Part shown: positions 2,308 through 45,367 of the stretch, in pieces | How positions within the stretch are numbered: the first letter of the stretch is position 1 | How the letters are laid out: each line of letters begins with the position of its first letter | Source: an uncultured bacterium | Lineage (GTDB): Bacteria; Patescibacteriota; Minisyncoccia; Phycocordibacterales; DATDWN01 | DNA: 64,000 nt | NCBI GenBank assembly: GCA_903861205.1 | Contig: CAIOTC010000003.1 | Location: 7,964 to 71,963 of the forward strand | Direction: 5' to 3' | Notes under the pieces: generated by a model | The model's input: the letters and a program-made list of their open reading frames with translations, nothing else | Databases searched by the model: none | What the model was told of the DNA's origin: nothing | Translations under genes and position numbers: made by a program

Positions 2308-2413
2308 GAAACAATTTTATAATTTTTAATTTAGAATTTTTAATGAATGTTTAAATTTAAAAATTCAAAAATTGAAAATTCATTTTAAATTAAAAATTCT
2401 AAATTAAAAATTT
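2308..2413. repeat. Family-A AT-rich palindromic intergenic element (..aatttttaatgaatgtttaaatttaaaaattcaaaaattgaaaattcatt..aaaattctaaattaaaaatt)
   Basis: Copies at ~6808-6922, 7853-7966, 8552-8658, 9096-9205, 12069-12176, 19430-19530, 32095-32177, 33693-33754, 35908-36009, 43465-43500, 44790-44820. Confidence 0.6.
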
Positions 2414-2629
2414 ATGCATGTTAAGAAAGATGACAACGTAATAGTTCTGACCGGCAAAGACAAGGGCAAAAAAGGCGCTGTGGTCAAAGCGTTCCCGAAA
2501 GAAAACAGAGTCGTTGTTTCCGGAGTCAATATTTTGAAAAAACATCAGAGACCGACCAAGTCCGGACAAAAAGGCCAGATTATCGAAAAGACGATGCCGA
2601 TACATGCGAGCAATGTAAGGAAAGTTTAG
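2414..2629 (+). CDS. rplX: 50S ribosomal protein L24 (short form, KOW domain only)
   Basis: [21 protein letters not shown]... matches the L24 N-terminus but lacks ~30 C-terminal residues. Confidence 0.85.
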
Positions 2630-2722
2630 AAAGTTGAATAAGTTTAAAAAGTTGAATAAGGAAAATGCAAGAAACTTATACAACTTATTAAACTAAAGCG
2701 AAGCGTAACTTATTAAACTACA

Positions 2723-3256
2723 ATGCAAACCATCAAAGAAAAAACAAAAGAATCGTACGGCGCGCTCAAGGCTGATTTCGGCTATAAAAACATCATGCAA
2801 TCGCCGAAAATCGAAAAGGTTATTGTTTCGGCCGGTGTCGGATCTTTCAAGGACAAGAAAAAAATCGATCTGGCTTTTGATCGACTTTCCAAAATCACCG
2901 GCCAGCGTCCCGTCAAAAAAGGCGCCAAGCAATCGGTGGCTTCTTTCAAAGTTCGCGAAGGTGACGTTGTAGGTTTGCAGGTTACTTTGCGAGGTCAGCG
3001 AATGTACGATTTTCTTGATCGCTTGATAAACATCTCACTTCCACGAACAAAAGACTTCCGCGGTATTTCTCCAACAGGCATCGACGAAATGGGCAACTAC
3101 ACCCTCGGTATCAAAGAGAACACTATTTTCCCGGAATCGTCCGATGAGGAACTGAAAGACGTTTTTGGTCTGGCTGTCACTGTCGTCACCAGCATTCGCG
3201 ACAAAAAAGAAACAAGAGCGTTTTTGACACACCTCGGATTTCCGTTCAAGAAGTAA
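2723..3256 (+). CDS. rplE: 50S ribosomal protein L5
   Basis: 177 aa, L5 signature; follows L24. Confidence 0.95.
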   Translation: MQTIKEKTKESYGALKADFGYKNIMQSPKIEKVIVSAGVGSFKDKKKIDLAFDRLSKITGQRPVKKGAKQSVASFKVREGDVVGLQVTLRGQRMYDFLDRLINISLPRTKDFRGISPTGIDEMGNYTLGIKENTIFPESSDEELKDVFGLAVTVVTSIRDKKETRAFLTHLGFPFKK

Positions 3257-3297
3257 AAACTTCCAAATTTCACCAATCTCATCGTCTAAAATAATAT

Positions 3298-3348
3298 CCT
3301 GATCCGTCAATGTACCCACTGTACACCTCCGGCTCAGGATTTTATTTT
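3298..3348 (+). terminator. Candidate rho-independent terminator after rplE
   Basis: Inverted repeat cctgatccg...ccggctcagg followed by attttatttt. Confidence 0.4.
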
Positions 3349-3398
3349 ATACGCGACCTTGGCGAAATTATGAAAATTTTTAGTCCGTGGTGACTTAA

Positions 3399-3426
3399 AA
3401 AACCGCTAAACATGGCGGTTTTTGCG
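3399..3426 (+). terminator. Hairpin/terminator T2 (aaaaaccgctaaacatggcggttttt), copy 1
   Basis: Stem aaccgc/gcggtt plus T-run; a near-identical copy lies at 5078-5108. Confidence 0.5.
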
Positions 3427-3455
3427 TATAAGACTTTACTTTTGAACGATAGTTG

Positions 3456-3464
3456 TGGTATAAT
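3456..3464 (+). promoter_or_regulatory. Extended -10 promoter (TGgTATAAT) for gene 3506-4216
   Basis: Read directly: tgtggtataat ~40 nt upstream of the start. Confidence 0.4.
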
Positions 3465-3505
3465 ACATATAGATCCATACCTCGCTACAAACCATTAAAC
3501 CGGTT

Positions 3506-4216
3506 TTGGAAGACGAAGAGTATAGGATGTTGGAGTTTGAAATGCTCACAGATCCGTTGTTCAACGTTTTTGTCGGAGTCGTCGCCCTCGGCGCGTTCCT
3601 GGCTTCTCTCTGGATGATTCGAGAGGCTTACCGGACCTCTGTCCGCTATTACCGCGAATTTTTTGTTTGGCGCCCGGTACGACGCCGTGGAGAGGAGATG
3701 GTCCGTCGAGCCAAGTTTTATGTTCAAATTCATGGTCCGCTCGCGGTCCAAAACAAGGCCAAGAAAGGGGTCACGGCGGTTGCGCGTTACGACAAGTTCA
3801 ACGCGAGACTGCTTGAAGTTCTTCGCAGGGCCGCAGGCGCGCGTAATACGGAGCCGATGTGCCAACGGGTGTTTGTAGATGTGGTCCCCACATTCACATT
3901 CGCTGATAACGAAGCGGTTCATTTTCCAGCACACACAGGTCTGAAAAGAGACATTGACGATCTAATGAGCTGGATTGTCGCTAAAATAACGGATATCGGT
4001 AAGGCAGAGGTTGACAAGAGAAGCTATGAAGAGGCAGTTTTGATTCTCGCAGTTCGTGATCAGCGATTACTGATACCGTTTGAGTACGAAGAACCGTTGC
4101 ACACCGTTGAGGGCGAGTTCAAGAAGTTTGGTGGCACAACACTTCAGCAAGCGGAGGAGCAGTTTGTACCTCCTTTTCCCAACACTAGCACGTTTGACAC
4201 CTCCGCGGACGAATAG
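3506..4216 (+). CDS. Hypothetical protein with an N-terminal TM helix; GC-rich cargo gene inside the ribosomal operon
   Basis: 236 aa ORF; GC clearly above its surroundings; own promoter and terminator. Confidence 0.6.
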   Translation: MEDEEYRMLEFEMLTDPLFNVFVGVVALGAFLASLWMIREAYRTSVRYYREFFVWRPVRRRGEEMVRRAKFYVQIHGPLAVQNKAKKGVTAVARYDKFNARLLEVLRRAAGARNTEPMCQRVFVDVVPTFTFADNEAVHFPAHTGLKRDIDDLMSWIVAKITDIGKAEVDKRSYEEAVLILAVRDQRLLIPFEYEEPLHTVEGEFKKFGGTTLQQAEEQFVPPFPNTSTFDTSADE

Positions 4217-4222
4217 AGAACC

Positions 4223-4259
4223 AGCCGGTGGTCCCTCGCGGGGTCGCCGGCTTTTCATT
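4223..4259 (+). terminator. Rho-independent terminator T1 (agccggtggtccc-tcgc-ggggtcgccggct + T-run), copy 1
   Basis: 13-bp stem including G-U pairs, so strand-specific for +; identical copy at 5688-5726. Confidence 0.6.
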
Positions 4260-4352
4260 TGACTTTAGCTCACTTAAATATTAAGTTTATCCACACTTAC
4301 ACATTTCTAATCATTGAATTTTCATGGGTGTATGGGATAATTAAAACAACAA

Positions 4353-4847
4353 ATGGAGCAAAAACTCAATATAAATAAATATAAAAACGCTCTCGTGTAT
4401 TTGATAGATAAATGTGGAAATGAAAAATTGGGCATCATGAAGCTCAATAAAATTTTCTATTACATGGATTTTATTTCATATCGCGACCGCGGTTTGACTG
4501 TGACTGGCGAAACTTACGTTCATCTTCCAAAAGGACCATTTGCAGATTCTTTGCAAAGTGTGATTTTGCCTCTGGCGGAAAAAGAAAATCTGGTGGAACA
4601 AAAAGAGGATATCAGTGAAAAATTTGGCAAACGAAACAGATTTAAAGCTCTCAAAAAACCAGACATGTCGCTTTTTGATGACTACGAAAAGAAATTGCTG
4701 GAGTACTTGTGCGTGACATTCAAGGATTGGACAACAGATCAAATGGTTGCCCAAACTCACACAGAAGCGCCGTGGGTTTTTTCCAAACCGAGCAAATCTC
4801 TGGATTATAATAATGCTGATGATATAGAATTCTTTGCCAATAATTAA
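4353..4847 (+). CDS. Panacea-domain (DUF4065 / SocA-like antitoxin, phage-associated) protein
   Basis: N-terminal ...GIMKLNKIFYYMDFISYRDRG.TVTGETYVHLPKGPF pattern typical of DUF4065. Confidence 0.55.
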   Translation: MEQKLNINKYKNALVYLIDKCGNEKLGIMKLNKIFYYMDFISYRDRGLTVTGETYVHLPKGPFADSLQSVILPLAEKENLVEQKEDISEKFGKRNRFKALKKPDMSLFDDYEKKLLEYLCVTFKDWTTDQMVAQTHTEAPWVFSKPSKSLDYNNADDIEFFANN

Positions 4848-4859
4848 TTTATTTCCACT

Positions 4860-5081
4860 ATGTCTTGGTCTGTACAGAGAACGGAAAGTTTCGACAAGTG
4901 GTGGAAAAAAGAGGGAATAGAAGATAAAAACTATGAGTATCACGAGCGGGCGCTCACGGAATTTCAAAATATTCCGTTGCCTCATCAGATGCAGAGTTGC
5001 GTATTTAAGAATAGCAGTTTTGAATGCTGGGTTACTCGATTGCCTGACAAAGATCTCGCAAAAGAATTTATGGAAGCTTAA
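4860..5081 (+). CDS. Small hypothetical protein adjacent to the Panacea gene; possible toxin partner
   Basis: 73 aa ORF 12 nt downstream in the same transcription unit; no recognisable family. Confidence 0.35.
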   Translation: MSWSVQRTESFDKWWKKEGIEDKNYEYHERALTEFQNIPLPHQMQSCVFKNSSFECWVTRLPDKDLAKEFMEA

Positions 5082-5108
5082 AAACCGCTCAACATGGCGG
5101 TTTTTACG
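5078..5108 (+). terminator. Hairpin/terminator T2, copy 2 (aaaaaccgctcaacatggcggttttt)
   Basis: Near-identical to 3399-3426. Confidence 0.5.
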
Positions 5109-5116
5109 TGTTTTGA

Positions 5117-5145
5117 TTGACAAATAGATATAAAGGGAGTATAAT
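5117..5145 (+). promoter_or_regulatory. Consensus sigma70-type promoter TTGACA-17-TATAAT
   Basis: ttgaca(5117-5122), 17-nt spacer, tataat(5140-5145), ~80 nt upstream of ORF 5226. Confidence 0.55.
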
Positions 5146-5225
5146 ATAAGCGAAACATGAATTGGGGCATGTATGGACTCCAATCGCCGTCGGGCGTTAA
5201 ATAGATCATTGAAAGAGGTAGAGAA

Positions 5226-5657
5226 ATGATGGATTGTATTTTGGCAGTGATGATGGCGATTGTCGCTTTCATCACAGGTTGGATTCTGGCCGGCATAAAC
5301 ATCAGACGGCAGAAAAAGACAGACCGGGCGGAACATAGAATCGAAAATACCCAACGCAACATCGGCAACCGCGTTTGCAATGCCTTGAATGATGCGGCGG
5401 ACCAAAACCCAGAAGCTCACTTAAGAGCGAAGACCATCTTCTGTAATGGTGGTGAGGTCTACCGCGTCTACCTGTCTTTTGATTTTAGTGGTGCTGATCT
5501 TCTGCTGGTGGACATCGATCCTCGGCAGTCGGTACCCATCACGGTCTTTTTCAACAAAAGCAGGCTGGAAAAGTATTATGATATCACCGAAGGGGATCTT
5601 GTAAGACTCATCCAGATGCTTCAAGAGTTCGTGGTGAATTACTCGCCCGAACGCTAG
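5226..5657 (+). CDS. Hypothetical protein with an N-terminal TM helix; second GC-rich cargo gene
   Basis: 143 aa; hydrophobic N-terminus; perfect promoter upstream and T1 terminator downstream. Confidence 0.55.
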   Translation: MMDCILAVMMAIVAFITGWILAGINIRRQKKTDRAEHRIENTQRNIGNRVCNALNDAADQNPEAHLRAKTIFCNGGEVYRVYLSFDFSGADLLLVDIDPRQSVPITVFFNKSRLEKYYDITEGDLVRLIQMLQEFVVNYSPER

Positions 5658-5687
5658 AGCAACTGACTTACGCCAGCTCAGTTATTC

Positions 5688-5726
5688 AGCCGGTGGTCCC
5701 TCGCGGGGTCGCCGGCTTTTTTGTGG
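5688..5726 (+). terminator. Rho-independent terminator T1, copy 2
   Basis: Identical 30-nt hairpin to 4223-4252, followed by tttttt. Confidence 0.6.
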
Positions 5727-5758
5727 GTGAAAGTGGCACTAAACAAGAATAAATTCCA

Positions 5759-5994
5759 GAGGTTCGACCTTAATGCCCAATTTCCCAAGGTCGAACCTCG
5801 GATGCGGGTGCAAAGTCACCACTAAACAAAATCTCGTACTGACATCTTTTCGGCAACTCCGCAGTGTCGCGAGCCGGTCTTGTCAACGACCCAGCCTTCG
5901 GGGCTGGGCTCATTGACAAGTCGCGACCGAGGACGGTAACAAACTTTTCGCTGGAAAAGTTTGTGGTGACGAAAAGATGTCAGTACGAGATTTT
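5759..5994 (+). other. Highly structured ~240-nt element (nested long hairpins) at the right boundary of the insertion, upstream of the S14 gene
   Basis: 11-bp hairpin 5759-5769/5789-5799; 25-bp perfect stem 5828-5852/5970-5994 enclosing a 62-nt hairpin 5866-5927 (7+8+7 bp stems, ttcg loop). Confidence 0.5.
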
Positions 5995-6060
5995 GTGTTG
6001 ACTTTTCAAGTCACTTTTGGTAGTCTTACCACAGCTTGAAAAAGCTTCGTTTTTGTAAAT

Positions 6061-6246
6061 ATGGCTAAAACATCTGTAAAAGCACGAGCTCGCAAAACAC
6101 CGAAATTCTCAACTCGGGCTGTTAACCGATGTTTCCGATGCGGACGAAAGCACGCTTTCATGCGAGACTTCGGTCTTTGCAGAATCTGCTTCCGCGAGCT
6201 GGCCAATGAGGGGAAGATTCCGGGGGTTAAGAAATCAAGTTGGTAG
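6061..6246 (+). CDS. rpsN: 30S ribosomal protein S14 type Z (zinc-binding, 61 aa)
   Basis: [48 protein letters not shown]; four Cys. Confidence 0.9.
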
Positions 6247-6360
6247 ATACGAAATAACGAATAAATTACGAATGGCTACGAATAAGGAATACAAAGCATT
6301 TCATTCGTTGCAATTCGTAGACCCATTCGTTACTTCGTATATTAAACAAGTTCGTTCTAG
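6246..6360. repeat. Family-D 'tacgaat' palindromic intergenic element
   Basis: Related copies at 15486-15597, 15793-15904, 27480-27520, 44128-44172. Confidence 0.55.
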
Positions 6361-6418
6361 CAAGTCAGCGGTTAAAAACCAAAGATACTGCTAAAATATA
6401 ATACACACAACAAAAGAA

Positions 6419-6805
6419 ATGGATCCAATTTCAGACATGATTATCCGAATAAAAAACGCCTCAGATTCAAAGAAGGAGTCTGTGGTTTTTCCATATTCAA
6501 AAATGAAGCTCGCTATTCTCGACACTTTGATGAAAAGCGGTTTTGTGGTTTCGTTCGGCAAGAAAGGCAAAAAGGTGGTCAAATTCATCGAAGTTGTTTT
6601 GGCTTATGAAAACGGCGAACCGAAAATTCATGGCGTGCAGAGAATTTCCAAAACATCAAAGCGAGTTTATCAGAAAGCCAAGGACATCCGCTCGGTCAGA
6701 AATGGTTTCGGCGCTTTGATATTGTCAACACCGAAAGGAATCATTACGGACAAAATGGCCAGAACGGATAAGGTTGGAGGGGAAGCACTCTTTAAAATTT
6801 GGTAA
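6419..6805 (+). CDS. rpsH: 30S ribosomal protein S8
   Basis: MDPISDMIIRIKNA... 128 aa. Confidence 0.95.
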   Translation: MDPISDMIIRIKNASDSKKESVVFPYSKMKLAILDTLMKSGFVVSFGKKGKKVVKFIEVVLAYENGEPKIHGVQRISKTSKRVYQKAKDIRSVRNGFGALILSTPKGIITDKMARTDKVGGEALFKIW

Positions 6806-6922
6806 TTTTAAAGAAATTTTCAATTTTTAATTTAAAATTTTCAATGAATTTCCAATTTAAAAATTTAGAAATTTAAAATTCAATAAAAATTAAAAATTCT
6901 AAATTAAAAATTATTCAAAATC

Positions 6923-7456
6923 ATGAGCAGAATCGGAAAAAAAGTAATAGCCATACCGGAAAAAACAGAAGTAACTTTTGCTTCGGGTGTTTTGACTGTC
7001 AAAGGTCCGCTCGGAACTCTTTCTCGAAGTTTGAAATCGGACATTTCGGTCAACATCACTCCAAAGGAAATCACCTTGGAACCGGTCAAGAAAACACTGG
7101 ACACGAACGCTTTGTGGGGAACATACGCTTCGCTTATTATAAATATGGTAGAGGGGGTAGGCAAAGCTTTTGTCAAAAAGGTTATTTTGGAAGGCATCGG
7201 CTACAAATCGGAAGTCAAAGGAAGTGATTTGGTTTTGGCTCTCGGTTTTTCACATCCTGTTAAAGTTGCCATTCCTACAACGCTTAAGGTGACAGCGGAA
7301 AAGAATACAATCACCATTAGCGGAATCGACAAGGAAGCGGTGGGAGAATTTGCCGCTAGTCTGCGAGCACTGAAAAAACCGGAACCGTACAAAGGTAAGG
7401 GATTTAGATACGAAGGAGAAATCATAAAGAGAAAGCAGGGTAAGAAAACAGCGTAA
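6923..7456 (+). CDS. rplF: 50S ribosomal protein L6
   Basis: MSRIGKKVIAIPEKTEVTF...VKGPLG. Confidence 0.95.
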   Translation: MSRIGKKVIAIPEKTEVTFASGVLTVKGPLGTLSRSLKSDISVNITPKEITLEPVKKTLDTNALWGTYASLIINMVEGVGKAFVKKVILEGIGYKSEVKGSDLVLALGFSHPVKVAIPTTLKVTAEKNTITISGIDKEAVGEFAASLRALKKPEPYKGKGFRYEGEIIKRKQGKKTA

Positions 7457-7497
7457 AATAGAGGTTGGAGAGAAGAGACTAGAGATTAGAAAATACA

Positions 7498-7848
7498 ATG
7501 CAAAATTCAAAATCCAAAACAGAACAGAGAATACGACGCAAGGCGCGAATACGAGCCAAGATTTCGGGCACCAAGGAAATGCCACGACTTTCCGTTTTCA
7601 AATCAAACAGATACATTTCTGCTCAGATTATCGATGACGGATCTTCTGTTACGCTTGCTTCTTCACATTCCAAAACAGCAAAAGGCAAAACGCTTTTGGA
7701 GAAATCAGTTGGCGTGGGAAGCGACATTGCAGCCCAAGCCAAAGCCAAGAAAATTACCAAGGTAGTTTTCGATCGCGGAGGATTCAGATACACGGGGGCG
7801 GTCAAGGCAGTCGCAGAGGGAGCAAGGGAAGGAGGATTAATTTTTTGA
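7498..7848 (+). CDS. rplR: 50S ribosomal protein L18
   Basis: RIRRKARIRAKISGT...PRLSVFKSNRYISAQIIDD. Confidence 0.9.
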   Translation: MQNSKSKTEQRIRRKARIRAKISGTKEMPRLSVFKSNRYISAQIIDDGSSVTLASSHSKTAKGKTLLEKSVGVGSDIAAQAKAKKITKVVFDRGGFRYTGAVKAVAEGAREGGLIF

Positions 7849-7969
7849 TTACAAAAAATAATTTCTAATTTTTAATTTAAAATTTTTAATGAATGTCTAA
7901 ATTTAAAAATTGAATCAATTAAAATTCATTAAAAATTCAAAAATTAAAAATTAAAAATTTTTACAAACA

Positions 7970-8551
7970 ATGGAACCAGAAATACAAAAAGAAATAACAA
8001 CAGAAGCTCCGAAAGTGGACGCCAGTCGTCCTATGGATTTTCGTGGTGGGGAAAGAGGGGGATTTAGAAAAAATACTCGCAAGGGTCCACCTCGTCGCGA
8101 AGCTCGAGTCAAGCCGGAATTCGACCAGAAAATCATTAGCATTCGCCGAGTGACTCGCGTGGTTACCGGAGGACGACGATTCAGCTTTTCCGTCGGTATT
8201 GTTATCGGTGACAGAAAGGGACGCGTTGGTGTCGGCCAAGGCAAAGCGGGGGATACTCCTATCGCCATCGACAAAGCTGTGCGAAACGCCAGAAAAAATA
8301 TGATTACGGTCAAAATGACCAAGAACGGTTCCATTCCGCATGACGTGGAGGCAAAATACTCGGCATCGAGAGTGCATATCATGCGCGCTCCTGGCAAGGG
8401 AATTTTGGCCGGCTCAAGCGTTCGAACAGTTTTGGAATTTGCAGGACTGAAAGAAGTTAGCGCCAAAATATTTTCACGAAGCAAAAATAAAGTGAACAAC
8501 GCACAAGTGGCGATCAAGGCGCTGGGGATGCTGAAAACAGGAAACAAATAA
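7970..8551 (+). CDS. rpsE: 30S ribosomal protein S5
   Basis: RRVTRVVTGGRRFSFSVGIVIGDRKGRVGVGQGKA S5 signature. Confidence 0.95.
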   Translation: MEPEIQKEITTEAPKVDASRPMDFRGGERGGFRKNTRKGPPRREARVKPEFDQKIISIRRVTRVVTGGRRFSFSVGIVIGDRKGRVGVGQGKAGDTPIAIDKAVRNARKNMITVKMTKNGSIPHDVEAKYSASRVHIMRAPGKGILAGSSVRTVLEFAGLKEVSAKIFSRSKNKVNNAQVAIKALGMLKTGNK

Positions 8552-8659
8552 TTTAAAATTTATAATTTAGAATTTAAAATGAATTTAAAATTTCAAAATT
8601 GAATCAATGAAAATTCATTAAAAATTAAAAATTTTAAATTAAAAATTTCTTAAACTATC

Positions 8660-9094: not shown

Positions 9095-9205
9095 AAACAA
9101 TTTAAAATTTATAATTTAAAATTTTTAATGAATGTCTAAATTTAAAAATTGAATCAATGAAAATTCATTAAAAATTAAAAATTCTAAATTAAAAATTATA
9201 TTGTC

Positions 9206-10477: not shown

Positions 10478-10625
10478 AACAATTTCCAAATAACAATTTC
10501 CAATTTCCAATAAATTTTTCAATATTCCAATGAATCAAATACAATTCTTTGGAATTTTTTGGAAATTGATCCATTGATTAATTCATTGAAAATTGTAAAT
10601 TGGAAATTGAAAATTATTAGTGCTA
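10478..10625. repeat. Family-C palindromic intergenic element (ttccaatttccaatgaat...attcattggaaattgaaaatt)
   Basis: Copies at ~13075-13210, 30720-30835, 31948-32040, 37080-37195. Confidence 0.6.
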
Positions 10626-10635
10626 TTATTTTCTC

Positions 10636-11226: not shown

Positions 11227-11237
11227 TTTTCTGTCAT

Positions 11238-11300: not shown

Positions 11301-11308
11301 AAAATAAA

Positions 11309-12779: not shown

Positions 12780-12787
12780 TTAGTAAA

Positions 12788-15477: not shown

Positions 15478-15485
15478 AAAATTAA

Positions 15486-15785: not shown

Positions 15786-15792
15786 GATGATA

Positions 15793-38570: not shown

Positions 38571-39059
38571 ATGAAAAAATCTGTCAGCGGTTTTACCCTC
38601 ATCGAGTTACTTGTTGTCATTGCGATCATCTCGCTCATCTCCTCTGTCATTTTGGCAGCTCTTAATTCGGCAAGAACTAAAGGTATAGATTCTTTAATAA
38701 AAGCAAACCTAAATACCATCATCAAACAAACCGAAATAGTTTTTGACGCAAATAATGGTAGTTATCTTAGTCCAAATTCTATTTGTTATAACACAACAAT
38801 TAGAAATGCCATGCAATCCAGTTCTCAGGCGTCTGCCGGGTATGATCTTATAACGAATGATTATAAAAGAGATTTTAATTGTGGAAATTTTGGTAAGTAT
38901 TGGGCAGTGGTAATAAAAATGAAAGGTTTAAACGGTTGCCCCGCTGCTTCATGGATATGCGCTGATAATAGCGTTGATCCTGCCGCTCCCGCCAAAGTCC
39001 CAGGAACTTACGAGATCATATGTAATCAACCCGGAGTGAGTATTTCCGTATGCCCATAG
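38571..39059 (+). CDS. Type IV pilin (class III signal GFTLIELLVVIAII)
   Basis: Prepilin leader plus hydrophobic N-helix; C-terminal Cys pair. Confidence 0.8.
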   Translation: MKKSVSGFTLIELLVVIAIISLISSVILAALNSARTKGIDSLIKANLNTIIKQTEIVFDANNGSYLSPNSICYNTTIRNAMQSSSQASAGYDLITNDYKRDFNCGNFGKYWAVVIKMKGLNGCPAASWICADNSVDPAAPAKVPGTYEIICNQPGVSISVCP

Positions 39060-39203
39060 AATTATCCACAGTGCCCCTTTTCACCGCTTGCATATAACCG
39101 TATAATAGATGTACTAGTTTAATAGATGAATTCTCTGAAAAAGAGGCGGTCGAGCTAGAAAATTTATTTACAAGAATTTATTAATAAAATTATCAATTAA
39201 TAT

Positions 39204-39695
39204 ATGAAATATATGAAAAGAGGTTTTACGCTTATTGAATTGCTCGTGGTTATCGCCATCATCGGTATTCTTTCATCAGTTGTTTTGGCTAGTTTGAACA
39301 CTGCTCGAAACAAGGGTGCTGATGCCGCTATCAAGTCAAACTTGGCAAATGCTCGCGCACAAGCAGAGATTTTCTATGATACTAACGGTCAGACTTACGA
39401 TGCTGGTACAGCTGCCACTGATGTTTGTAACACAGCAGCATCAGTCGGTAACCCGGCTGTAAAAGGTGTATTTGCAAATGTTCAGGCTGCAGCTACAACC
39501 GCAGGGGCGGGTACTGCGCTTACAGACACGGCAGAAACAACAACAAACGCAGTGTGTAATAGTTCTGCTACTGGATGGGCCGCAGCAGTTCCCCTAAAGG
39601 GAGGTGGACAGTGGTGTGTTGACAGCACAGGAAAGTCAGTACCGGAGGTAGCTGCAAACCTGTTGGCACCAGCTGCAACAGTGGCTTGCCCATAG
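39204..39695 (+). CDS. pilA: Type IV major pilin-like (PilA paralog 1)
   Basis: MKYMKRGFTLIELLVVIAIIGILSSVVLASLNTARNKGADAAIKSNLANARAQAEIFYD; C-terminal WCVDSTG...C. Confidence 0.8.
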   Translation: MKYMKRGFTLIELLVVIAIIGILSSVVLASLNTARNKGADAAIKSNLANARAQAEIFYDTNGQTYDAGTAATDVCNTAASVGNPAVKGVFANVQAAATTAGAGTALTDTAETTTNAVCNSSATGWAAAVPLKGGGQWCVDSTGKSVPEVAANLLAPAATVACP

Positions 39696-39725
39696 TACTT
39701 GATTATGTTTTAGTTTTAGATTCAG

Positions 39726-39752
39726 AAAAACCGGCCTTGGCCGGTTTTTCGT
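39726..39752 (+). terminator. Rho-independent terminator (aaaaaccggccttggccggttttt)
   Basis: Perfect 8-bp stem plus T-run. Confidence 0.55.
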
Positions 39753-39850
39753 TTATTTGAGTTATCAACACCTCACGTTTGTATTGTCTTTTTATGTTGT
39801 ATAATATATCCATAACTTTATAAGTTTTAAATTATTAGTTTATTAAACAT

Positions 39851-40339
39851 ATGAATAAGACAAATCGAGGTTTTACGCTTATTGAATTACTCGTGGTTAT
39901 CGCCATCATCGCACTTCTGTCGTCGGTTGTTCTGGCATCACTTAACTCAGCCAGGAATAAGGGTGCTGATGCAGCTATCAAATCAAACTTGGCAAATGCT
40001 CGCGCACAAGCGGAGATTTTCTATGATGCAAATGGAAGTTCTTATATGGGTACTATTAACACAGCTACCGATGTATGTAACACAGCCGCTTCAGTTAATG
40101 GAGTAAAGGGTATTTATCCAAATGTTCTTGCGGCGATACAAGTAAGTCAGGGTTCTGGTGGTGCTCTAGTCGCTGAAAATGCGGTAGAAACTGGCACAAC
40201 TGCCTCGTGCAACCCCGCTTCAGGTACTTGGGTCGCTCAGGCCCCTTTAAAAAGTGCGGGTTTTTGGTGTGTTGACAGTACGGGCGCTTCTGTTCCTGAA
40301 GCAGCTGTATTACCTATCAACGCGACCAAGTGTCAGTAA
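39851..40339 (+). CDS. Type IV pilin (PilA paralog 2)
   Basis: N-terminal ~60 aa near-identical to 39204 gene. Confidence 0.8.
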   Translation: MNKTNRGFTLIELLVVIAIIALLSSVVLASLNSARNKGADAAIKSNLANARAQAEIFYDANGSSYMGTINTATDVCNTAASVNGVKGIYPNVLAAIQVSQGSGGALVAENAVETGTTASCNPASGTWVAQAPLKSAGFWCVDSTGASVPEAAVLPINATKCQ

Positions 40340-40492
40340 AATACTTGGATAGTTTTAAAAACCGCTCTCCTCAAGGGGGTGGTTTTTGTATGTAAAGTTA
40401 TCAACAAGCTCTAATTTTGTTTATTTTTTTAAGTTGTATAATGAAATCACAAGGTCCAAATTGTCACTTAATTCTTATTAGGTTTTAATTTT

Positions 40493-40918
40493 ATGAAAAA
40501 CATTAAAAGAGGTTTTACGCTTATTGAATTACTCGTGGTTATCGCCATTATCGGTATTCTTTCCGCGGTTGTTTTAGCGAGTTTAAATACAGCTCGAGAT
40601 AAAGGTGCTGACGCAGCTATAAAAGGAGATTTGGATGGTATCCGTGCTCAAGCGCAAATAGTTTACGAGGATAATTCAAATGATTATACCAATGTTTGTA
40701 TAGATCAGACTGTTATTGCTGCTGTAACTGGCGCACTTACAGCCGGAACAGATCTAGGGGCATTAGCTGACAGATGCCACTCCGACACCGACCATTGGAA
40801 CGCTTGGGCCACGCTCAAAACCGACACTGCCCAAATGTGGTGCGTGGACAACACCGGCACATCGCGCCAAGGCCCCGTCGCCTCCGCCCCCACCGACCCC
40901 CTCACCCCTTGCCCATAA
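40493..40918 (+). CDS. Type IV pilin (PilA paralog 3)
   Basis: Same leader and N-helix; WCVDNTG motif. Confidence 0.8.
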   Translation: MKNIKRGFTLIELLVVIAIIGILSAVVLASLNTARDKGADAAIKGDLDGIRAQAQIVYEDNSNDYTNVCIDQTVIAAVTGALTAGTDLGALADRCHSDTDHWNAWATLKTDTAQMWCVDNTGTSRQGPVASAPTDPLTPCP

Positions 40919-40938
40919 ATTAAAGTTATCACCTTCAA

Positions 40939-40965
40939 CCCTAGCAAGAACAGTTCTTGCTAGGG
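40939..40965. repeat. REP palindrome (ccctagcaagaacagttcttgctaggg), 27-nt perfect
   Basis: Immediately upstream of the RAYT gene. Confidence 0.65.
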
Positions 40966-40985
40966 TTTGTATATGTTGATATAAT

Positions 40986-41687
40986 TTGCGTATGTTACGA
41001 AAAGACCCATTTGTTACTGGTGAATACTACCATTTATATAATCGTGGTATCGATAAGAGGATTATATTTAAATTAAAAAGAGATTACGAGAGGTTTATGG
41101 TTCTTTTGTACCTTGCAAATTCGGACGAATCTTTCCGCCTCGATAATTTAATAAGCATACAGCATAAAACATTTGATGAAATTTTGGTTTTAGATAAAGG
41201 TGAGCCCCTAGTTTCCATTGGAGTGTGGTGCATAATGGAGAATCACTTTCATTTGGTGGTAAGACAAGAAGTGGATGGGGGAATCACTCAGTTTATGAGA
41301 AAGCTTGGTGTTGGATATTCAATGTTTTTTAATATTAAGTATCAAAGAAAAGGTGCCCTATTCGGGGGACCTTTTAAATCAAAATTTATTGGGGATGATG
41401 ATTACATGCGGCAACTTTTTGGATATATTCATCTGAATCCTTTAGAAATAAAATTTCCAGATTGGAAAAACACCCTAGCAAGAACAGTTCTTGCTAGATC
41501 TGATGATATGAAAAAATTTCTGGAAGAGTATGGGTATTCGAGCTATTTGGATTATCTTGGAAGAGATAGAGCAGAAAAAAACATTCTCAGCACCAAAAAC
41601 TTTCCGGATTATTTTGGCGAGCAACAATCCTTCAGGAATTTTGTGGACGATTATCTAGCCGAGGGTCTATTTGAAGATGATAAATAA
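40986..41687 (+). CDS. REP-associated tyrosine transposase (RAYT; IS200/IS605-like HuH Y1 transposase)
   Basis: HuH motif NHFHLVV and catalytic-Tyr motif YIHLNPLE; flanked by REP palindromes and contains one. Confidence 0.7.
   Translation: MRMLRKDPFVTGEYYHLYNRGIDKRIIFKLKRDYERFMVLLYLANSDESFRLDNLISIQHKTFDEILVLDKGEPLVSIGVWCIMENHFHLVVRQEVDGGITQFMRKLGVGYSMFFNIKYQRKGALFGGPFKSKFIGDDDYMRQLFGYIHLNPLEIKFPDWKNTLARTVLARSDDMKKFLEEYGYSSYLDYLGRDRAEKNILSTKNFPDYFGEQQSFRNFVDDYLAEGLFEDDK
41473..41497. repeat. REP palindrome inside the RAYT gene (encodes LARTVLA)
   Basis: ccctagcaagaacagttcttgctag. Confidence 0.6.
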
Positions 41688-41699
41688 TTTTAGCAAGTT

Positions 41700-41722
41700 T
41701 TAGCAAGAACTGTTCTTGCTAA
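41700..41722. repeat. REP palindrome downstream of RAYT (ttagcaagaactgttcttgctaa), with a partial tandem half-copy
   Basis: Perfect palindrome, preceded by tagcaagtt. Confidence 0.6.
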
Positions 41723-41805
41723 ATTCTTGGTGTTATTACCAGATTTGTTTTAATTCAGATGCCTTCGCAGTATAATTAGCGTATGGACTTTCATAATGCA
41801 CTGAC

Positions 41806-42549
41806 ATGGCAAATTCAAAAGTAATCATCGTTATGCCGGCTTACAACGCCGAAGCCACCTTGCAAAAAACAGTGGCTGACATTCCTTTTGAATATGTTGA
41901 TGAAATCATTCTGGTCGACGATGCTTCGCAGGACAAAACTGTCGAGCGAGCGCAAAATCTGAAAGACACCTATTTGAAATCAAAAAATATTTTTTTTACC
42001 ATTGAAAAAATGTCCCGCAATACCGGCTACGGTGGCAATCAGAAAAAATGCTATCGTTTGGCTCTGGACCACGGAGCGGATATTATTGTCATGCTTCATC
42101 CTGATTACCAATATGATCCAAAACTGGTAAAGTATTTCGTGGAATTTATCCGTGATGGATATTTTGACGTCATGCTTGGCTCGCGCGTCAGGACCAGAAA
42201 GGAGGCTTTGGACGGAGGCATGCCGGCGTACAAATATTATGCTAATAGATTTCTCACTTTTATCCAAAATGTTGTTGCCGGGCAATCATTGTCGGAATGG
42301 CACACCGGTATGAGAGCCTACAAGAGGGAGGTTTTGGAATCTTTACCACTGGAGAAATTCTCTGACGATTTTGTTTTTGACACACAGGTTTTGTTTGCAA
42401 TTGCCGGTCGGGGATACAAAATTGGTGATATTCCTGTTCCTGTCAGATATTTTAAAGAAGCTTCATCGATAAATTTTAGGCGTAGCGTTAAGTATGGTTT
42501 ACAAACTCTTTTTGAAACAGCGAAATTCTTAGTTGGGAAACTTGTTTAA
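41806..42549 (+). CDS. Family 2 glycosyltransferase (DPM1-like)
   Basis: IIVMPAYNAEATL...ILVDDASQDKT GT2 N-terminal motifs. Confidence 0.75.
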   Translation: MANSKVIIVMPAYNAEATLQKTVADIPFEYVDEIILVDDASQDKTVERAQNLKDTYLKSKNIFFTIEKMSRNTGYGGNQKKCYRLALDHGADIIVMLHPDYQYDPKLVKYFVEFIRDGYFDVMLGSRVRTRKEALDGGMPAYKYYANRFLTFIQNVVAGQSLSEWHTGMRAYKREVLESLPLEKFSDDFVFDTQVLFAIAGRGYKIGDIPVPVRYFKEASSINFRRSVKYGLQTLFETAKFLVGKLV

Positions 42550-42602
42550 AGTTATCACCACTCTCGTTTTCAAATATTTTCCATACGCTGTATAATTAGC
42601 GT

Positions 42603-43463
42603 ATGGATTTTATTTTTGTCGCGTTCATGTTTATTCTGCTTGTTTTTATTGTTGGCGCGCTGCTGGGCAGTTTTCTGAATGTTGTTTCCATGCGCTACAA
42701 CACCGGACTCTCGCCGCTAAAGGGGAGATCGATGTGTTTTCATTGCGGAACACAGCTTAAATGGTACGAAAACATCCCGCTGGTCAGTTTTCTTTTTCTT
42801 CTCGGAAAATGCCGGACGTGCGGGGCCAAAATTTCCTGGCAATATCCACTTATCGAACTTTCAACCGGATTAATTTTTGTCGGAGTCGCTCTGCGTCAAT
42901 ATTTCTTGTGGCCTTTGTACGGCGGATTTGCTCACGGACTCACATATTCCATTTTATTTTTCTTATATTACGCTGTCGTTTTTTGCCTTCTGGAAGTTAT
43001 CGTTCTTTATGATATCCGCCACACCATCATTCCAAACAGTTTTGTTTACGCTTTCATCACTTTGGCTTTCGGGAAATTGTTGCTTTTTCTTTTCATCAAA
43101 GGATTTAATCTTGGCACAATCGACATCTTTGACATATCGGCCGCCTTTGCTCTTTTTGTGCCTTTCGCTTTGCTCTGGCTTGTTTCTGCCGGTAGGTGGA
43201 TTGGCTTCGGCGATGCCAAATTGGCTCTGGGAATCGGCGCCATGCTCGGTTTTGTCTCCGGATTTTCCGCCGTTGTCCTGGCTTTTTGGATTGGAGCGCT
43301 TTGGAGTATTTATTTTATTTTGCACAATCGTTTTTTGAAAAATACGCGGGTCGGTTTGAAAACGGAAGTTCCTTTTGCGCCGTTTCTGATTTTGGCCACG
43401 GCGATAGTTTTTTTCACTCACGCGGATGTGCTGGGATTGGGGAAACTTATAAGTTTTCTTTAA
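42603..43463 (+). CDS. pilD: Prepilin peptidase PilD (A24 family)
   Basis: CFHCGTQL...CRTCGAKI zinc-binding tetracysteine plus polytopic membrane domain. Confidence 0.85.
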
Positions 43464-43496
43464 AAACAATTTAAAATTTAGAATTTATAATTTAAA

Positions 43497-44129
43497 ATGA
43501 ATTTAAAATTTAAAATTTCAAATTTAAAATCCAACGCGGGCTTCACACTCGTTGAAATGATGATTACGGTGAGCATTGTGGTCATTATTATGTTGGTCGT
43601 AATGTTTAACTACCGAACATTCAGCGACAACTTGGCTTTGTCATCGGCAGGGCAGGAAATAGCCATTGAACTCCGCCAAGCGCAGATTTACGGTTTGTCT
43701 GTCAAGGAAGGCGCCGTGGGAGGAAATATTTTTAGCTATGGTTATGGAATTTACGTTGAAAAAAGCGATCCGCTGAATTACATATTGTTCGTCGATAAAA
43801 ATAATGACAACAAATATGACACATCCAGCGTTTGTCCCGGTGGCACCGAATGTGTCGAAAAAGTTCCGATTCGCAACGGCGTGAAAATATCAGATATTTG
43901 TTGGGCGCCATTTGGTGGAGGTTTTGTTTGTCCGTCTGCGGCTAATGTTCAGTCAATGGATGTTTTGTTTCTTCGTCCAAATCCGGATGTCGGCATTCGT
44001 TTTCTAGTCAATGTTCCGCCAGTTACTCTTTTGGGTACATACCAAACTGGTCGAATTGTTCTAACATCACCCCTGGGCAAAACAATGACCGTCAGTATCC
44101 AAAACACTGGACAGATAAGTGTACAATAA
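43497..44129 (+). CDS. Minor pilin / pseudopilin (GFTLVEMMITV N-terminus)
   Basis: Class III signal peptide and hydrophobic helix. Confidence 0.7.
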   Translation: MNLKFKISNLKSNAGFTLVEMMITVSIVVIIMLVVMFNYRTFSDNLALSSAGQEIAIELRQAQIYGLSVKEGAVGGNIFSYGYGIYVEKSDPLNYILFVDKNNDNKYDTSSVCPGGTECVEKVPIRNGVKISDICWAPFGGGFVCPSAANVQSMDVLFLRPNPDVGIRFLVNVPPVTLLGTYQTGRIVLTSPLGKTMTVSIQNTGQISVQ

Positions 44130-44177
44130 TGTACGAAATAACGAATGGGTCTACGAATGTCTACGAATAAATACAAA

Positions 44178-44789
44178 ATGCAAATACGAAAATTTAAAAA
44201 TAATAAAGGCTTCACATTAGTCGAACTCATGGTCTCCGTTTCCATTTTTGCCGTGGTCATGATTCTGTGCATGGGAGCTATTTTGACTGTGCTGGATTCC
44301 AATCGCAAGTCCCAGTCTGTCCGTGCTGTCATGGACAACTTGAGTTATAGTTTGGAGGGCATGACGAGAGCCATAAGATTTGGATCGGTTTATCATTGTG
44401 GTGCCGGTTCCGTTATGACCACTCAAAATTGTGCTTATCCAAACGGAAGTAACACCTTATCGGTTTTGGATTCGACCAAGGCACAACATATAAAATTTTG
44501 GTTTGATGCTGGTAATAAGAAAATTGTTAAAACGGTTTCTGATTCGCTCGGTTCAGGCGCAGTCGATTACGACTTGACATCTCCGGACGTTACAATTCAA
44601 TCACTGACTTTTTATACATCCGGTACGGATTCCTATCCTTTTGCTTCGAATAACTGCGCAAGCGGGGGTTTTGATTGTTTTCAACCAAAAGTGATTGTCG
44701 TCATCAAAGGTTTTGCTGGCACGAAACCTTCGACCCAGACGGCATTTAGTTTGGAAACAACGTTGTCGCAGAGAGCGTTTGATTTTTAA
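44178..44789 (+). CDS. Minor pilin / pseudopilin
   Basis: Internal start MQIRKFKNNKGFTLVELMVSVSIFAVV. Confidence 0.65.
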   Translation: MQIRKFKNNKGFTLVELMVSVSIFAVVMILCMGAILTVLDSNRKSQSVRAVMDNLSYSLEGMTRAIRFGSVYHCGAGSVMTTQNCAYPNGSNTLSVLDSTKAQHIKFWFDAGNKKIVKTVSDSLGSGAVDYDLTSPDVTIQSLTFYTSGTDSYPFASNNCASGGFDCFQPKVIVVIKGFAGTKPSTQTAFSLETTLSQRAFDF

Positions 44790-44797
44790 TTAAAAAC

Positions 44798-45367
44798 ATG
44801 ATTTTAAAATTTAAAATTAAAAATTTAAAATTCAATTCAGGCTTTACAATAGTGGAAACACTCGTGGCTATTTCTATCTTAACCTTATCGATTCTCGGTG
44901 CGTTCACGGCCGTGCAGGGAAGTTTGCAGAAGTCATATTACGCCAAGGACCAAGCCACTGCTTTTTATTTGATTCAGGAAGCTGTCGAATACATCCGAAA
45001 CATTCGCGACAACAATGGAATGGCGAACATTGCGGCTATCACTACTGGTGGTTCAGTAAACTGGCTTAAAGGTATTGCAACTGCGGGCGACGCGTGTATA
45101 TTTGGAAATTGGTGTTATATTGATTCTCCTTTGGATTCAAAAACGGCTTGTTCGCCGAATACTTTTGCAAATTGTCCCTTTATTAAACAGGATTCTACAA
45201 CCGGGTTGTTTGGGTATACAAATGGAACTGCCACAAAATTCAAAAGAGCGGTCCAACTGACACCAATAAATGCCAACGAAATTGTCATAACAGTTCAGGT
45301 GGATTGGACAAGCGGAGTTTTTTCAAAGTCGATACAGGTCAAGCAGTCGCTGTTTAATGTTCGATAA
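44798..45367 (+). CDS. Minor pilin / pseudopilin
   Basis: SGFTIVETLVAISILTL. Confidence 0.65.
   Translation: MILKFKIKNLKFNSGFTIVETLVAISILTLSILGAFTAVQGSLQKSYYAKDQATAFYLIQEAVEYIRNIRDNNGMANIAAITTGGSVNWLKGIATAGDACIFGNWCYIDSPLDSKTACSPNTFANCPFIKQDSTTGLFGYTNGTATKFKRAVQLTPINANEIVITVQVDWTSGVFSKSIQVKQSLFNVR

Follow-up and report, generated by a model that had tools for sequence, protein, structure and literature searches.

What are the palindromes of about 100 nt that stand between nearly all neighbouring ribosomal-protein genes of a bacterium with a highly reduced type of genome? The question is raised by a 64-kb stretch of DNA from contig CAIOTC010000003.1 (contig positions 7,964 to 71,963; hereafter the window, with positions counted from its first nucleotide). 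By sequence, its host is a Zambryskibacteria-like Patescibacterium, a member of the Candidate Phyla Radiation (CPR); the closest matches of its SecY protein, with 78% identity, come from metagenome-assembled genomes of Candidatus Zambryskibacteria and other Paceibacteria. CPR genomes are among the smallest and most gene-dense known, and selfish repeats are unexpected in them, least of all between ribosomal-protein genes. An initial annotation of the window described at least five families of such repeats, A to E, and ascribed them either to proliferation in the manner of miniature inverted-repeat transposable elements (MITEs) or to a genome-wide code for RNA processing or termination. We consider it probable (roughly 0.6) that the repeats are several families of small non-coding hairpin elements which copied themselves, or were copied, into new sites, forming in a Zambryskibacteria-type CPR genome a population that resembles MITEs or the repetitive extragenic palindromes (REPs) and REP doublets forming hairpins (REPINs) of other bacteria. 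Gain and loss by insertion would explain the sequences better than a dedicated RNA code, and the functional and the insertional reading do not exclude each other.

Repeat families in the window

The families were delimited by repeat finding, direct and inverted, and by nhmmer profile search; gapless palindrome finding misses most of the bulged elements and was not used for the census. The window contains 25 full palindromic elements of 75-140 nt, 2.6 kb in total, plus six one-armed arrays. At least seven hairpin-forming families are represented: A with eight full copies, C with five, B with four, D with three, E and F with two each, and G with one. All five families of the initial annotation were recovered, but A and C are, on their sequences, a single superfamily of 13 full copies, with heptamer arms of AATTTNN and AATTTCC, respectively, and the core AATGAAT/ATTCATT in common, and its list lacks the GC-rich family F, family G (about 120 nt) and a short hairpin, H. 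Likewise, the "at least 12" copies given for A are reached only when C and the half arrays are counted with it, and the range assigned to the repeats (2308-44820) does hold them, but they continue beyond it up to B4 at 48517-48612.

That the repeats are structured and self-complementary was borne out, far above chance expectation. The pattern (AATTTNN)3AATGAAT, searched on both strands with at most three mismatches, matches 51 times, against 0.05 expected from 100 dinucleotide shuffles. For ten representative elements the folding z-scores range from -3.75 to -11.1, and no element was equalled by any of its 200 dinucleotide shuffles, so that a structureless, low-complexity AT background, which the initial annotation had named as the finding that would overturn it, does not describe these copies.

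Each element is an inverted pair of arrays around a loop, the arms being tandem arrays of 7-10-nt units, whose cores of 5-6 nt (AATTT, ACGAAT, AAGTT) are invariant and whose linkers of 2-4 nt vary. The unit has 7 nt in A and C (AATTTNN, with arms of the form (AATTTNN)3-5), 9 nt in B (AAGTTGAAT), 8-10 nt around ACGAAT in D and 7-9 nt around AAAGTC in E; at least five different unit cores are found within this one genome, and in Tandem Repeats Finder periods of 7/14 and 9/18 dominate the window. Thirteen of the 17 A/C arrays are inverted pairs. Besides the arms, a 29-nt loop is conserved among copies of A, which differ in the number of their units, and the B copies have in common an asymmetric 3' tail that includes GCGAAGCG and a GCGAAGC mini-hairpin. 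The elements are imperfect palindromes over their entire length; in family D the ends are ATACGAATAT.../...ATATTCGTAT. The arms of C2 (13075-13213) pair perfectly over 25 nt, and a GAAT/ATTC core near the hairpin tip is common to several families. The arms of family F (11228-11307 and 23548-23620 in the window, 4758-4829 in L125; L numbers denote retrieved sequences) are of the ATTCCCGC-N-GCGGGAAT type and may resemble the dRS3 repeats of Neisseria (ATTCCC-N8-GGGAAT).

In alignments of families A and D, informative compensatory pairs are nearly absent, since the cores do not vary and several pairing registers are open to the arms; the variable positions within family A are not compensated. No element reaches an Rfam gathering threshold, which in the window only the transfer-messenger RNA (tmRNA) and four tRNAs do; permissive matches on the elements are generic microRNA-precursor hairpins, well below threshold.

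Occupied and empty junctions in related genomes

The initial annotation had proposed a comparison with sister genomes, and in it orthologous junctions proved to be empty in some relatives and filled by other families in others. We mapped 17 operon genes in 80 related loci, and the junction-occupancy figures are drawn from 75 relatives. In the window 14 of the 17 junctions from rplV to ndk are occupied by an element, and 10 of the 12 standard junctions have gaps of 60-260 nt, compared to a median of 0 and a mean of 13% in the relatives, among which only L033 (10/12) and L031 (7/12) come close. The earlier statement that the repeats flank almost every gene of the ribosomal cluster, at an unusual density, is confirmed by these figures. 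Occupancy does not differ significantly across junctions (chi-square p=0.07). Most operon junctions of the relatives measure 1-30 nt; longer ones, of 70-200 nt, are scattered over about half of the genomes at non-orthologous positions and contain hairpins of the same design, often built from other units such as GATTAAAG, GCGTTTAGCG, TTTACAG or AGCTGATAGCT.

The junction between rpsH and rplF is empty in L006, L008 and L010, and is occupied by D in L009, by E in L013, by a member of the GATTAAAG family in L014 and L021, and by A in the window. Between rplN and rplX, L013 has a G element and the close relatives L014 and L021 have D, with an identical ATAAAAACAA spacer before the ATG in all three, so that the two families would have entered independently right after the stop codon. 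Filled and empty sites are also found among close relatives at rplX/rplE and rplO/secY. Furthermore, the spacers that precede the ATG in the window resemble the gaps at empty sites of relatives, as between rplR and rpsE (TACAAACA in the window, tacaaatt in L006).

Two copies of D in the window, D2 (15479-15603) and D3 (15782-15909), are identical over 117 nt at different sites, and two identical copies at different sites also exist in L009. Among the ribosomal loci of the relatives, A, B, C and F are private to the window species, D occurs in seven, E in four and G in five; members of the G family at junctions other than in the window are found in L005, L007, L008, L009, L013 and L021. A/C-like and F-like copies are present in other metagenome contigs.

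Family D in metagenomes

The pattern with both D ends was found in 107 metagenome stretches with unrelated contexts; 129 D-like copies were analysed, and the D-bearing contigs total 640 kb. Many copies have unlike ends: 17 pairings of end types are unlike, and 3 and 1 are alike. The 5' end, G(A/T)TAAAC, bears a stop codon, and in 32 of 40 cases this codon and the inverted repeat are 6-8 nt apart; the G-free 3' end (ATTAAATTC) abuts the next ATG. Both ends follow the direction of the genes, including D2 and D3 on the minus strand, and no conservation past the ATG was seen among the D copies. With respect to the ends, the asymmetric interior can have either orientation (9 "flip", 20 "flop", 16 ambiguous), which would be expected from recombination of the arms or from the copying of hairpin intermediates.

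A tentative TTAAA duplication around D was not upheld across copies. A viral origin was likewise rejected: patterns of the D end and the A arm gave 7 and 3 matches in IMG/VR, which were chance occurrences in coding sequence (terminase-like) or weak, and no element was among them.

Position of the elements relative to genes

The stop codon of the upstream gene lies 0-6 nt 5' of the element or within it, and in 21 of the 23 elements with a downstream gene the next start codon follows 0-15 nt past the element. Stop codons are inside the element in five cases (rplV in E1, rpsQ in B2, rplX in B3, rpmI in D2 and infC in D3). The C-termini of the proteins encoded beside elements are unchanged or one to two residues longer. 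In the following, copies of A, B and E as well as D1 are on the plus strand and D2 and D3 on the minus strand; C, F and G copies are given without strand.

The S10/spc ribosomal operon (1-12779) has the usual order: the end of rplV, rpsC, rplP, rpmC, rpsQ, rplN, rplX, rplE, rpsN, rpsH, rplF, rplR, rpsE, rplO, secY, adk, map and ndk. In its first part, E1 (60-152, AAAGTCC/AAAGTCA units) separates rplV from rpsC, and the rplV frame crosses its left arm to a TAA at 107-109. B1 (817-912), with AAGTTGAAT units and the GCGAAGC mini-hairpin in its 3' arm, lies between rpsC and rplP, whose ATG is 1 nt downstream; E2 (1331-1423) follows between rplP and rpmC. B2 (1844-1933; rpsQ/rplN) contains the rpsQ stop (1853-1855) and B3 (2622-2721; rplX/rplE) the rplX stop (2627-2629), and between them stands A1 (2310-2413; rplN/rplX), with AATTTNN heptamer arms and the AATGAAT core. 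G1 (3258-3379), a GC-richer palindrome of 120 nt, is found just 3' of rplE, and D1 (6245-6351), with ACGAAT-core units and the ends ATACGAAT/ATTCGTAT, 3' of rpsN. Further copies of A occupy rpsH/rplF (A2, 6812-6915), rplR/rpsE (A3, 7853-7961, with the 8-nt spacer TACAAACA before the ATG), rpsE/rplO (A4, 8550-8650), rplO/secY (A5, 9097-9198, found too in the independent assemblies L002 and L004) and map/ndk (A6, 12074-12174), whereas secY/adk holds C1 (10480-10620, AATTTCC units, CCAATGAAT core) and adk/map holds F1 (11228-11307), a GC-rich palindrome of the form TGTCATCCCCGCGAAGGCGGGGATC.... If its stop is read correctly, the rplV frame (1-109) gives L22 a lysine-rich tail, KKSIKSKVHKEKTKKN, from the left arm of E1, with the TAA in the loop; the adk frame of L014 and L021 likewise reads into a D arm.

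In the infC-rpmI-rplT operon (minus strand, 16412-15058), D3 separates infC from rpmI and D2 rpmI from rplT, the infC and rpmI stops being in the respective GTTAAAC ends, and ATTAATTTT precedes the rplT ATG. C2 lies 3' of a terminator-like hairpin (13054-13067) and 5' of an open reading frame (ORF) that ends at 13629. A7 (19433-19528) is placed between the tmRNA gene (minus strand) and an ORF starting at 19530, in a 5' leader and not between cistrons. The second copy of family F is F2 (23548-23620). A one-armed D-type array of ACGAAT units on the minus strand (27481-27520) covers the stop of the upstream ORF and the ATG of fmt, and B4 separates gatC from gatA. Within the gatA coding sequence, a (CTCTAAA)5 heptamer array (49338-49372) reads HSLNSNLKSLNSK; the amidase domain is otherwise complete.

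The type IV pilus cluster comprises pilM, pilN/O, pilB, a response regulator, pilT, pilC, pilins and a prepilin peptidase. C3 (30718-30830) lies within the 5' untranslated region, between a promoter-like -10 box (TGGTATACT, about 30700) and the pilM ATG (30836), and C4 (31943-32040) immediately 3' of the pilM stop. Two arrays consist of the right arm of A only, A8 (32094-32175), between a TGTATAAT box and an ATG at 32178, and A9 (33693-33750), just 5' of the pilB ATG (33755). A10 (35906-36005) separates the response-regulator gene from pilT, and C5 (37081-37193) pilT from pilC. The elements had been said to flank almost every gene of the pilus locus as well. This applies to the assembly genes from pilM to pilC, which are separated by A/C elements, but the major pilin genes (38571-40918) are without them and have ordinary TGnTATAAT promoters and GC-rich terminators. 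Beyond these genes, a left-arm-type A array (43464-43534, plus strand) provides in its AATGAAT core the ATG (43497) of a prepilin, with the encoded leader MNLKFKISNLKSNA/GFTLVE; a one-armed D-type array (44131-44170, plus strand) supplies with an ACGAATG unit the ATG (44145) of a pilin-like ORF; and an A-type heptamer array (44795-44832, plus strand) encodes the leader of a prepilin starting at 44798. In several prepilin-like genes, then, A- or D-type arrays encode the leader (43497-43560, 44145-44215, 44798-44860, 45377-45415), and translation starts at the ATG within an AATGAAT or ACGAATG unit.

A7, C3 and A8 sit in 5' leaders and are very probably transcribed, because two of them follow TGnTATAAT boxes. 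A Shine-Dalgarno motif precedes none of the 22 genes behind elements, compared to 5 of 28 other genes, and several genes look leaderless. None of the A-E elements has a G+C-rich stem followed by a T run, and none has a promoter in a constant position, so that the "termination code" of the initial annotation found no support. The sigma-70-like matches within elements (39, against 20.6 expected) are weak and lie in A/T-rich sequence; clear promoters of this organism are TGnTATAAT boxes, which occur outside the elements, as do true terminator-like or strong promoter-like sites (4223, 5079, 5117, 5688 and 13054). A TATAAT box is located only 6-7 nt before the ATG of the genes at 40992 and 42603 (boxes at 40975-40994 and about 42585-42605), which suggests leaderless mRNAs; a third (about 41772, in a region of about 41772-41808) lies some 30 nt upstream of the called ATG at 41806 and 7 nt upstream of another ATG.

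Folding shows no advantage of the sense strand in 43 oriented D copies, in which the sense and antisense strands have 116 and 126 G-U pairs, and in 153 ribosomal-junction elements of the relatives stability is slightly higher for the antisense strand (p about 0.004). Together with the uncompensated positions of family A, this gives no evidence of selection on the structure of a sense-strand RNA.

A RAYT-like gene and its hairpin

The window contains one candidate for a mobilising enzyme, a gene (40992-41687, plus strand) for an HUH/Y1 transposase similar to the REP-associated tyrosine transposases (RAYTs), with the motifs YHLYNRG, NHFHLVV and YIHLNP. Its product scores 23.2 bits with the Pfam family Y1_Tnp (cut-off 23); among the NCBIfam models, that of the REP-associated tyrosine transposase (REP_Tyr_transpos) matches best, with 29.9 bits, below the cut-off of 80. 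At E<=1e-5 there are 1578 homologues, annotated as "transposase" or "IS200-like", in Nomura-, Zambryski-, Staskawicz- and other Parcubacteria; the motifs YHxxNRG, NHFH and Y-x3-N are invariant in the alignment with them. The best 120 are 69-78% identical, a degree of conservation that suggests a resident RAYT more than a roaming insertion sequence. In a profile search against PDB the matches to TnpA of ISDra2 and to the TnpA-REP protein of E. coli were non-significant, and an AlphaFold model of the protein is too poor for use (mean pLDDT 40.6).

The gene is flanked on both sides by a hairpin, CTAGCAAGAAC-N-GTTCTTGCTAG. This is family H, of the form GCAAGAAC-N-GTTCTTGC, with five copies in the window: one upstream of the gene (40938-40966, CCCTAGCAAGAAC-A-GTTCTTGCTAGGG, without strand), one downstream (41697-41722), one in frame within it (41472-41497), one within recG (25581-25607) and one at 27034-27059. 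The module of gene and hairpin recurs in other Zambryskibacteria contigs beside different neighbouring genes, and elsewhere in 2.1 Mb of fetched DNA H is found only beside homologous genes. More distant homologues have other perfect palindromes at their flanks; one of them lies between rplB and rpsS (L039). Since H flanks the gene, outside the window occurs only beside homologous genes, and no homologue was found near D, the cognate repeat of the enzyme is H. On the same grounds no tie between the gene and families A-E could be made, and it is only a possibility that the enzyme moves A-E. Read in frame, H gives LARTVLA in the RAYT-like protein, at a place where the homologues carry the shorter KIKNS, and SLARTVLAN in a linker of RecG.

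Origin and maintenance of the elements

The preference for copying and insertion over an RNA code is based on the patchy distribution, the different families at one site, the identical copies elsewhere and the folding that is indifferent to the strand. In such a process, elements would be gained and lost by insertion, and selection would leave those copies that spare the neighbouring cistrons. They could persist only in the few non-coding bases of a compact genome, that is, after or over a stop codon, before a start codon or in 5' leaders. Several properties may make them tolerable there: in-frame stop codons come with the elements, the ATG keeps or receives a G-free, A/U-rich stretch in front of it, in an organism that seldom uses Shine-Dalgarno sites, and the elements would fold on themselves, so that the start region of the next cistron stays free of structure. 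The most plausible means of copying would be an HUH (Y1) enzyme acting on single-stranded DNA hairpins, a route without target duplication. We infer co-transcription with the operon, a near-neutral effect on expression and this mechanism of copying. The proliferation in the manner of MITEs that the initial annotation suggested is thus supported by the multiple copies, the identity of D2 and D3, the junctions that are empty or hold another family and the presence of D in 107 metagenome stretches, but not by the target-site duplications for which it advised to look, which were not seen at the flanks of A, B or D, nor by a parent with the same ends.

A number of observations weigh against this explanation. 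Neither A nor B nor any of the 129 D copies is flanked by a target-site duplication. The search for an autonomous element with the same ends, which covered the window, 1.3 Mb of loci from relatives and 0.64 Mb of D-bearing contigs, a limited sample, was negative, and the 640 kb of D-bearing contigs contain no RAYT homologue; the RAYT-like gene of the window is flanked by H and not by A-E, and the same H flanks it in L202 and L205/L207. Invariant cores with variable linkers, as seen in 39 D copies that come from many genomes, look selected and not parasitic. B (4/4) and E (6/6) are always co-directed with the genes, and behind the D end ATTAAATT(C/T) the ATG is placed at +8 to +12 in 22 of 30 cases, in 15 at exactly +9. 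One-armed (AATTTTC)n arrays occupy three junctions of L005, of which two carry a full A in the window, and at these two shared junctions a long vertical persistence is suggested. Finally, structure just past a stop codon lowers translational coupling in E. coli (review, PMC12548453), and it is therefore not safe to assume that a hairpin in this place is harmless.

These points keep a functional reading alive, above all the invariant cores, the gene-oriented ends, the exact abutment to the ATG and the one-armed L005 arrays at orthologous sites. It is possible, though in our opinion rather unlikely, that the hairpins are selected intercistronic RNA elements, which punctuate polycistronic mRNAs as processing or stabilising sites or as devices of translational coupling; in the latter version the terminating ribosome would melt the base of the stem and free the A/U-rich region before the next start, and mobility would be the spread of useful cassettes. 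Such a role would agree with the position exactly between stop and start, the portable stop-bearing and pre-start ends of D, the co-orientation of B, E and D ends with the genes (D2 and D3 on the minus strand included), the probably transcribed elements in 5' untranslated regions past -10 boxes and the lack of Shine-Dalgarno sites behind elements. It also has precedents in the TAACTGA heptamers of Beggiatoaceae, a close analogue found before starts and in ribosomal-protein operons and proposed as translational regulators (PMC4679880), and in the coupling of rpmI and rplT in E. coli, which acts by RNA unfolding across a 52-nt gap (PMC12548453). However, half of the 75 relatives are without such an element in the operon, the same junction has other families or none, the sense strand has no folding advantage and no enrichment of G-U pairs, the variable positions of family A are uncompensated and the interior of D is found in both orientations relative to its ends. 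Patchy occupancy, a roughly uniform use of junctions and the absence of a sense-strand advantage would argue against a fixed processing code. A bolder version, which we hold to be similarly doubtful, combines both sides: the elements would be portable intercistronic cassettes, used throughout the CPR and composed of a stop codon, a unit-array hairpin and a G-free spacer, which set the cutting, stabilisation or coupling of mRNA in Patescibacteria poor in Shine-Dalgarno sites and RNases, and which a conserved RAYT-like HUH enzyme copies as single-stranded hairpins. If true, this would also explain why Parcubacterial phyla rank at the top in inverted-repeat density.

Less probable still are arrays of binding sites, i.e. 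inverted sets of four to five short sites (ACGAAT, AATTT, AAGTT, AAAGTC) in DNA or RNA for a multimeric transposase, a nucleoid protein or a translational regulator. Invariant cores with variable linkers (39 D copies, A units), one-armed arrays without a hairpin and the GAAT/ATTC core near the tip of several families are what one would expect of such sites, but no protein emerged as a candidate binder, a genome of roughly 1 Mb with seven or more unrelated cores would need as many binders, and the palindromic pairing of variable linkers, as in the 25-nt arms of C2, is unexplained by sites alone. In addition, a spacing of 7 nt is too tight for typical DNA-binding domains. Alternatively, A/T-rich spacers might have grown locally, through replication slippage and quasi-palindrome correction, and never have moved between sites. 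The tandem arms with their dominating periods, the differing unit numbers and the first "unit" of B3, which is the native 3' end of rplX (AAAGTTTAG), would fit this idea, but independent growth in place is ruled out for A by the loop that its copies share in addition to the arms; non-repetitive loops and tails are common to distant copies (the A loop, the B tail with GCGAAGCG, the 117 nt of D2 and D3), the same D ends occur in more than 100 unrelated contigs, and F and G are GC-rich and not of low complexity. Local growth is, on these shared unique loops and identical copies at different loci, largely refuted and very improbable. The least credible explanation is that each element serves as terminator of the preceding gene, promoter of the following gene, or both. 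The many weak sigma-70-like matches in A/T-rich sequence would agree with it, but they have no constant position, the elements have no G+C-rich stem with a T run, and true terminator-like and promoter-like sites, including the clear TGnTATAAT boxes, are elsewhere.

Relationship to known repeats

The copied hairpin elements that we favour have their nearest counterparts in several classes of repeats, each of which they match in part. With REPs, REPINs and their RAYTs (Bertels and Rainey 2011, PMC3116915) they share extragenic multicopy hairpins of about 100 nt, several families per genome and the lack of target duplication, as well as the presence of an HUH/Y1 RAYT-like gene that is highly conserved across the clade (70-78% identity) and has its own hairpin on both sides. 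In contrast, a REPIN arm is the REP palindrome itself, whereas the arms here are tandem, non-palindromic units of 7-10 nt, and the score of the gene is below the NCBIfam cut-off for RAYTs. The repeat that flanks the RAYT-like gene, as REPs that populate a genome flank their RAYT, is H and not A-E; for family H itself this likeness holds. The elements resemble MITEs in being small (under about 500 bp), non-coding and multicopy, with terminal inverted repeats and presence/absence polymorphism; target-site duplications and, in the limited sample, a parent insertion sequence with the same ends are missing. Enterobacterial repetitive intergenic consensus (ERIC) sequences are, together with Correia elements, co-transcribed bacterial MITEs of the same likeness. 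Correia elements (Correia repeat enclosed elements, CREE) of Neisseria are likewise small, with terminal inverted repeats, many copies and insertion polymorphism in transcribed intergenic DNA, and their hairpin can affect the fate of the mRNA; they have a TA target duplication and can create promoters (PMC2649163). In the elements described here, there is no signal of a duplication or a promoter, the whole element is a stem of unit arrays, and the ends are stop and pre-start modules.

The cyanobacterial short tandemly repeated repetitive (STRR) sequences are one case of heptamer direct repeats. Another is TAACTGA, which occurs in Beggiatoaceae, Cyanobacteria and Bacteroidetes, a single indirect repeat having been reported (MacGregor 2015, PMC4679880). 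Its tandem 7-nt units are also found just before starts, ribosomal operons included, without Shine-Dalgarno sites and occasionally within ORFs; here, the arrays are mostly inverted pairs forming hairpins of about 100 nt, there are many unit sequences per genome, and the host belongs to the CPR. Mycobacterial interspersed repetitive units (MIRUs) are mobile repeats at gene boundaries in operons, oriented with the genes and sparing the expression of the neighbour; their insertion sites are start codons, a small ORF of their own is coupled to the following gene by a -4 overlap, and they are not palindromes (summarised in PMC12548453). Placement and co-orientation are alike, as the elements stand within the ribosomal, infC-rpmI-rplT, pil and gatCA operons with B, E and D ends oriented with the genes, but they are palindromes, and no conserved bridging ORF was seen in the few copies read by eye; an ATG in D2 reaches a stop after five codons. 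In the reduced genome of Rickettsia, palindromic elements can sit in frame inside genes. The in-frame H in recG and in the RAYT-like gene, the array-encoded pilin leaders and, if its stop is as read, the L22 frame through the arm of E1 are comparable; most copies here are intercistronic, and there is no relation in sequence.

Two further classes were rejected. Integron attC sites do not agree with essential flanking genes in conserved order, and no integron integrase was seen among the ORFs scanned; by eye, the D ends GTTAAAC/ATTAAAT match the attC core consensus (RYYYAAC...GTTRRRY) at only 6/7 positions. Clustered regularly interspaced short palindromic repeats (CRISPR) and tandem interspaced guide RNA (TIGR) arrays, the latter being tandem arrays of longer units of about 36 nt, are spacer arrays, whereas the elements are single dispersed hairpins with arm periods of 7-10 nt. 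A literature search within a limited collection of papers found no description of these repeats in CPR bacteria, only TIGR arrays, judged to be unrelated, the analogues above and a 2026 survey that ranks Campbellbacteria and Kaiserbacteria first among all phyla in the density of perfect inverted repeats (PMC13155455). We regard the elements as REP/MITE-like intercistronic palindromes of a new build, which fall outside the definitions of MITEs, REPINs, heptamer repeats and MIRUs.

Implications for CPR genomes

If hairpins that are apparently mobile fill most junctions, the stop-to-start gaps of a ribosomal operon can absorb structured inserts of 100 nt. The hairpin population would be a concrete cause of the very high inverted-repeat density reported in Parcubacteria. 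With its unit arrays, its end modules for stop and pre-start and its flip/flop interiors, it is well suited to the study of copying without target duplication, and equally of cistron initiation independent of Shine-Dalgarno sites. Such repeats would also explain fragmentation and mis-joins of these genomes in short-read assemblies. In L001 (ENA contig, 1556-3284), which was assembled independently from short reads of the same species, an A element leads from rpsS to secY, a mis-join through A copies. The gap between rplB and rpsS in L001 measures 655 nt and contains stacked palindromes; the retrieved contigs of the window species are 2-4 kb long.

Other features of the window

The G+C content of the window is 43%, and that of the segment past about 53.5 kb is 32-38%. 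Besides the operons mentioned, the window encodes the tmRNA, four tRNAs, ftsH, recG, fmt, ligA and gatCA. The spc operon is interrupted between rplE and rpsN by an insert of 2.8 kb (3257-6060) with three ORFs, one of which has a SocA/Panacea antitoxin-like domain; the insert has its own strong promoters (3435, 5117) and terminators (4223, 5079, 5688). This junction is broken across the clade, as the gap between rplE and rpsN has a median of 309 nt in 54 relatives. A low-G+C segment (52708-64000, 32-38%), which begins beside tRNA genes, carries genes for a LAGLIDADG endonuclease (52810-53529), for a large serine recombinase (53583-55190, minus strand) and for a primase-polymerase (55265-57703, minus strand). 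No copy of any repeat family was detected there, and the segment probably represents an integrated element. The 3' end of a tRNA gene (ctcccacaccttccgcaa, 29126-29212) recurs about 170 nt downstream (tctcccacaccttctgcaa, about 29355-29378) and resembles the scar of an attachment site. Outside all families there are unique perfect or near-perfect inverted repeats of 30 nt, at 12786-12869 (just 3' of ndk), 52604-52664 and 5826-5996. Finally, a conserved ATATAAT-containing stretch, (a)gatac..aagATATAATACACACA, lies 5' of rpsH (6385-6418) and is shared with the rpsN/rpsH gaps of L005, L006 and L008; it may be an internal promoter or a regulatory site.

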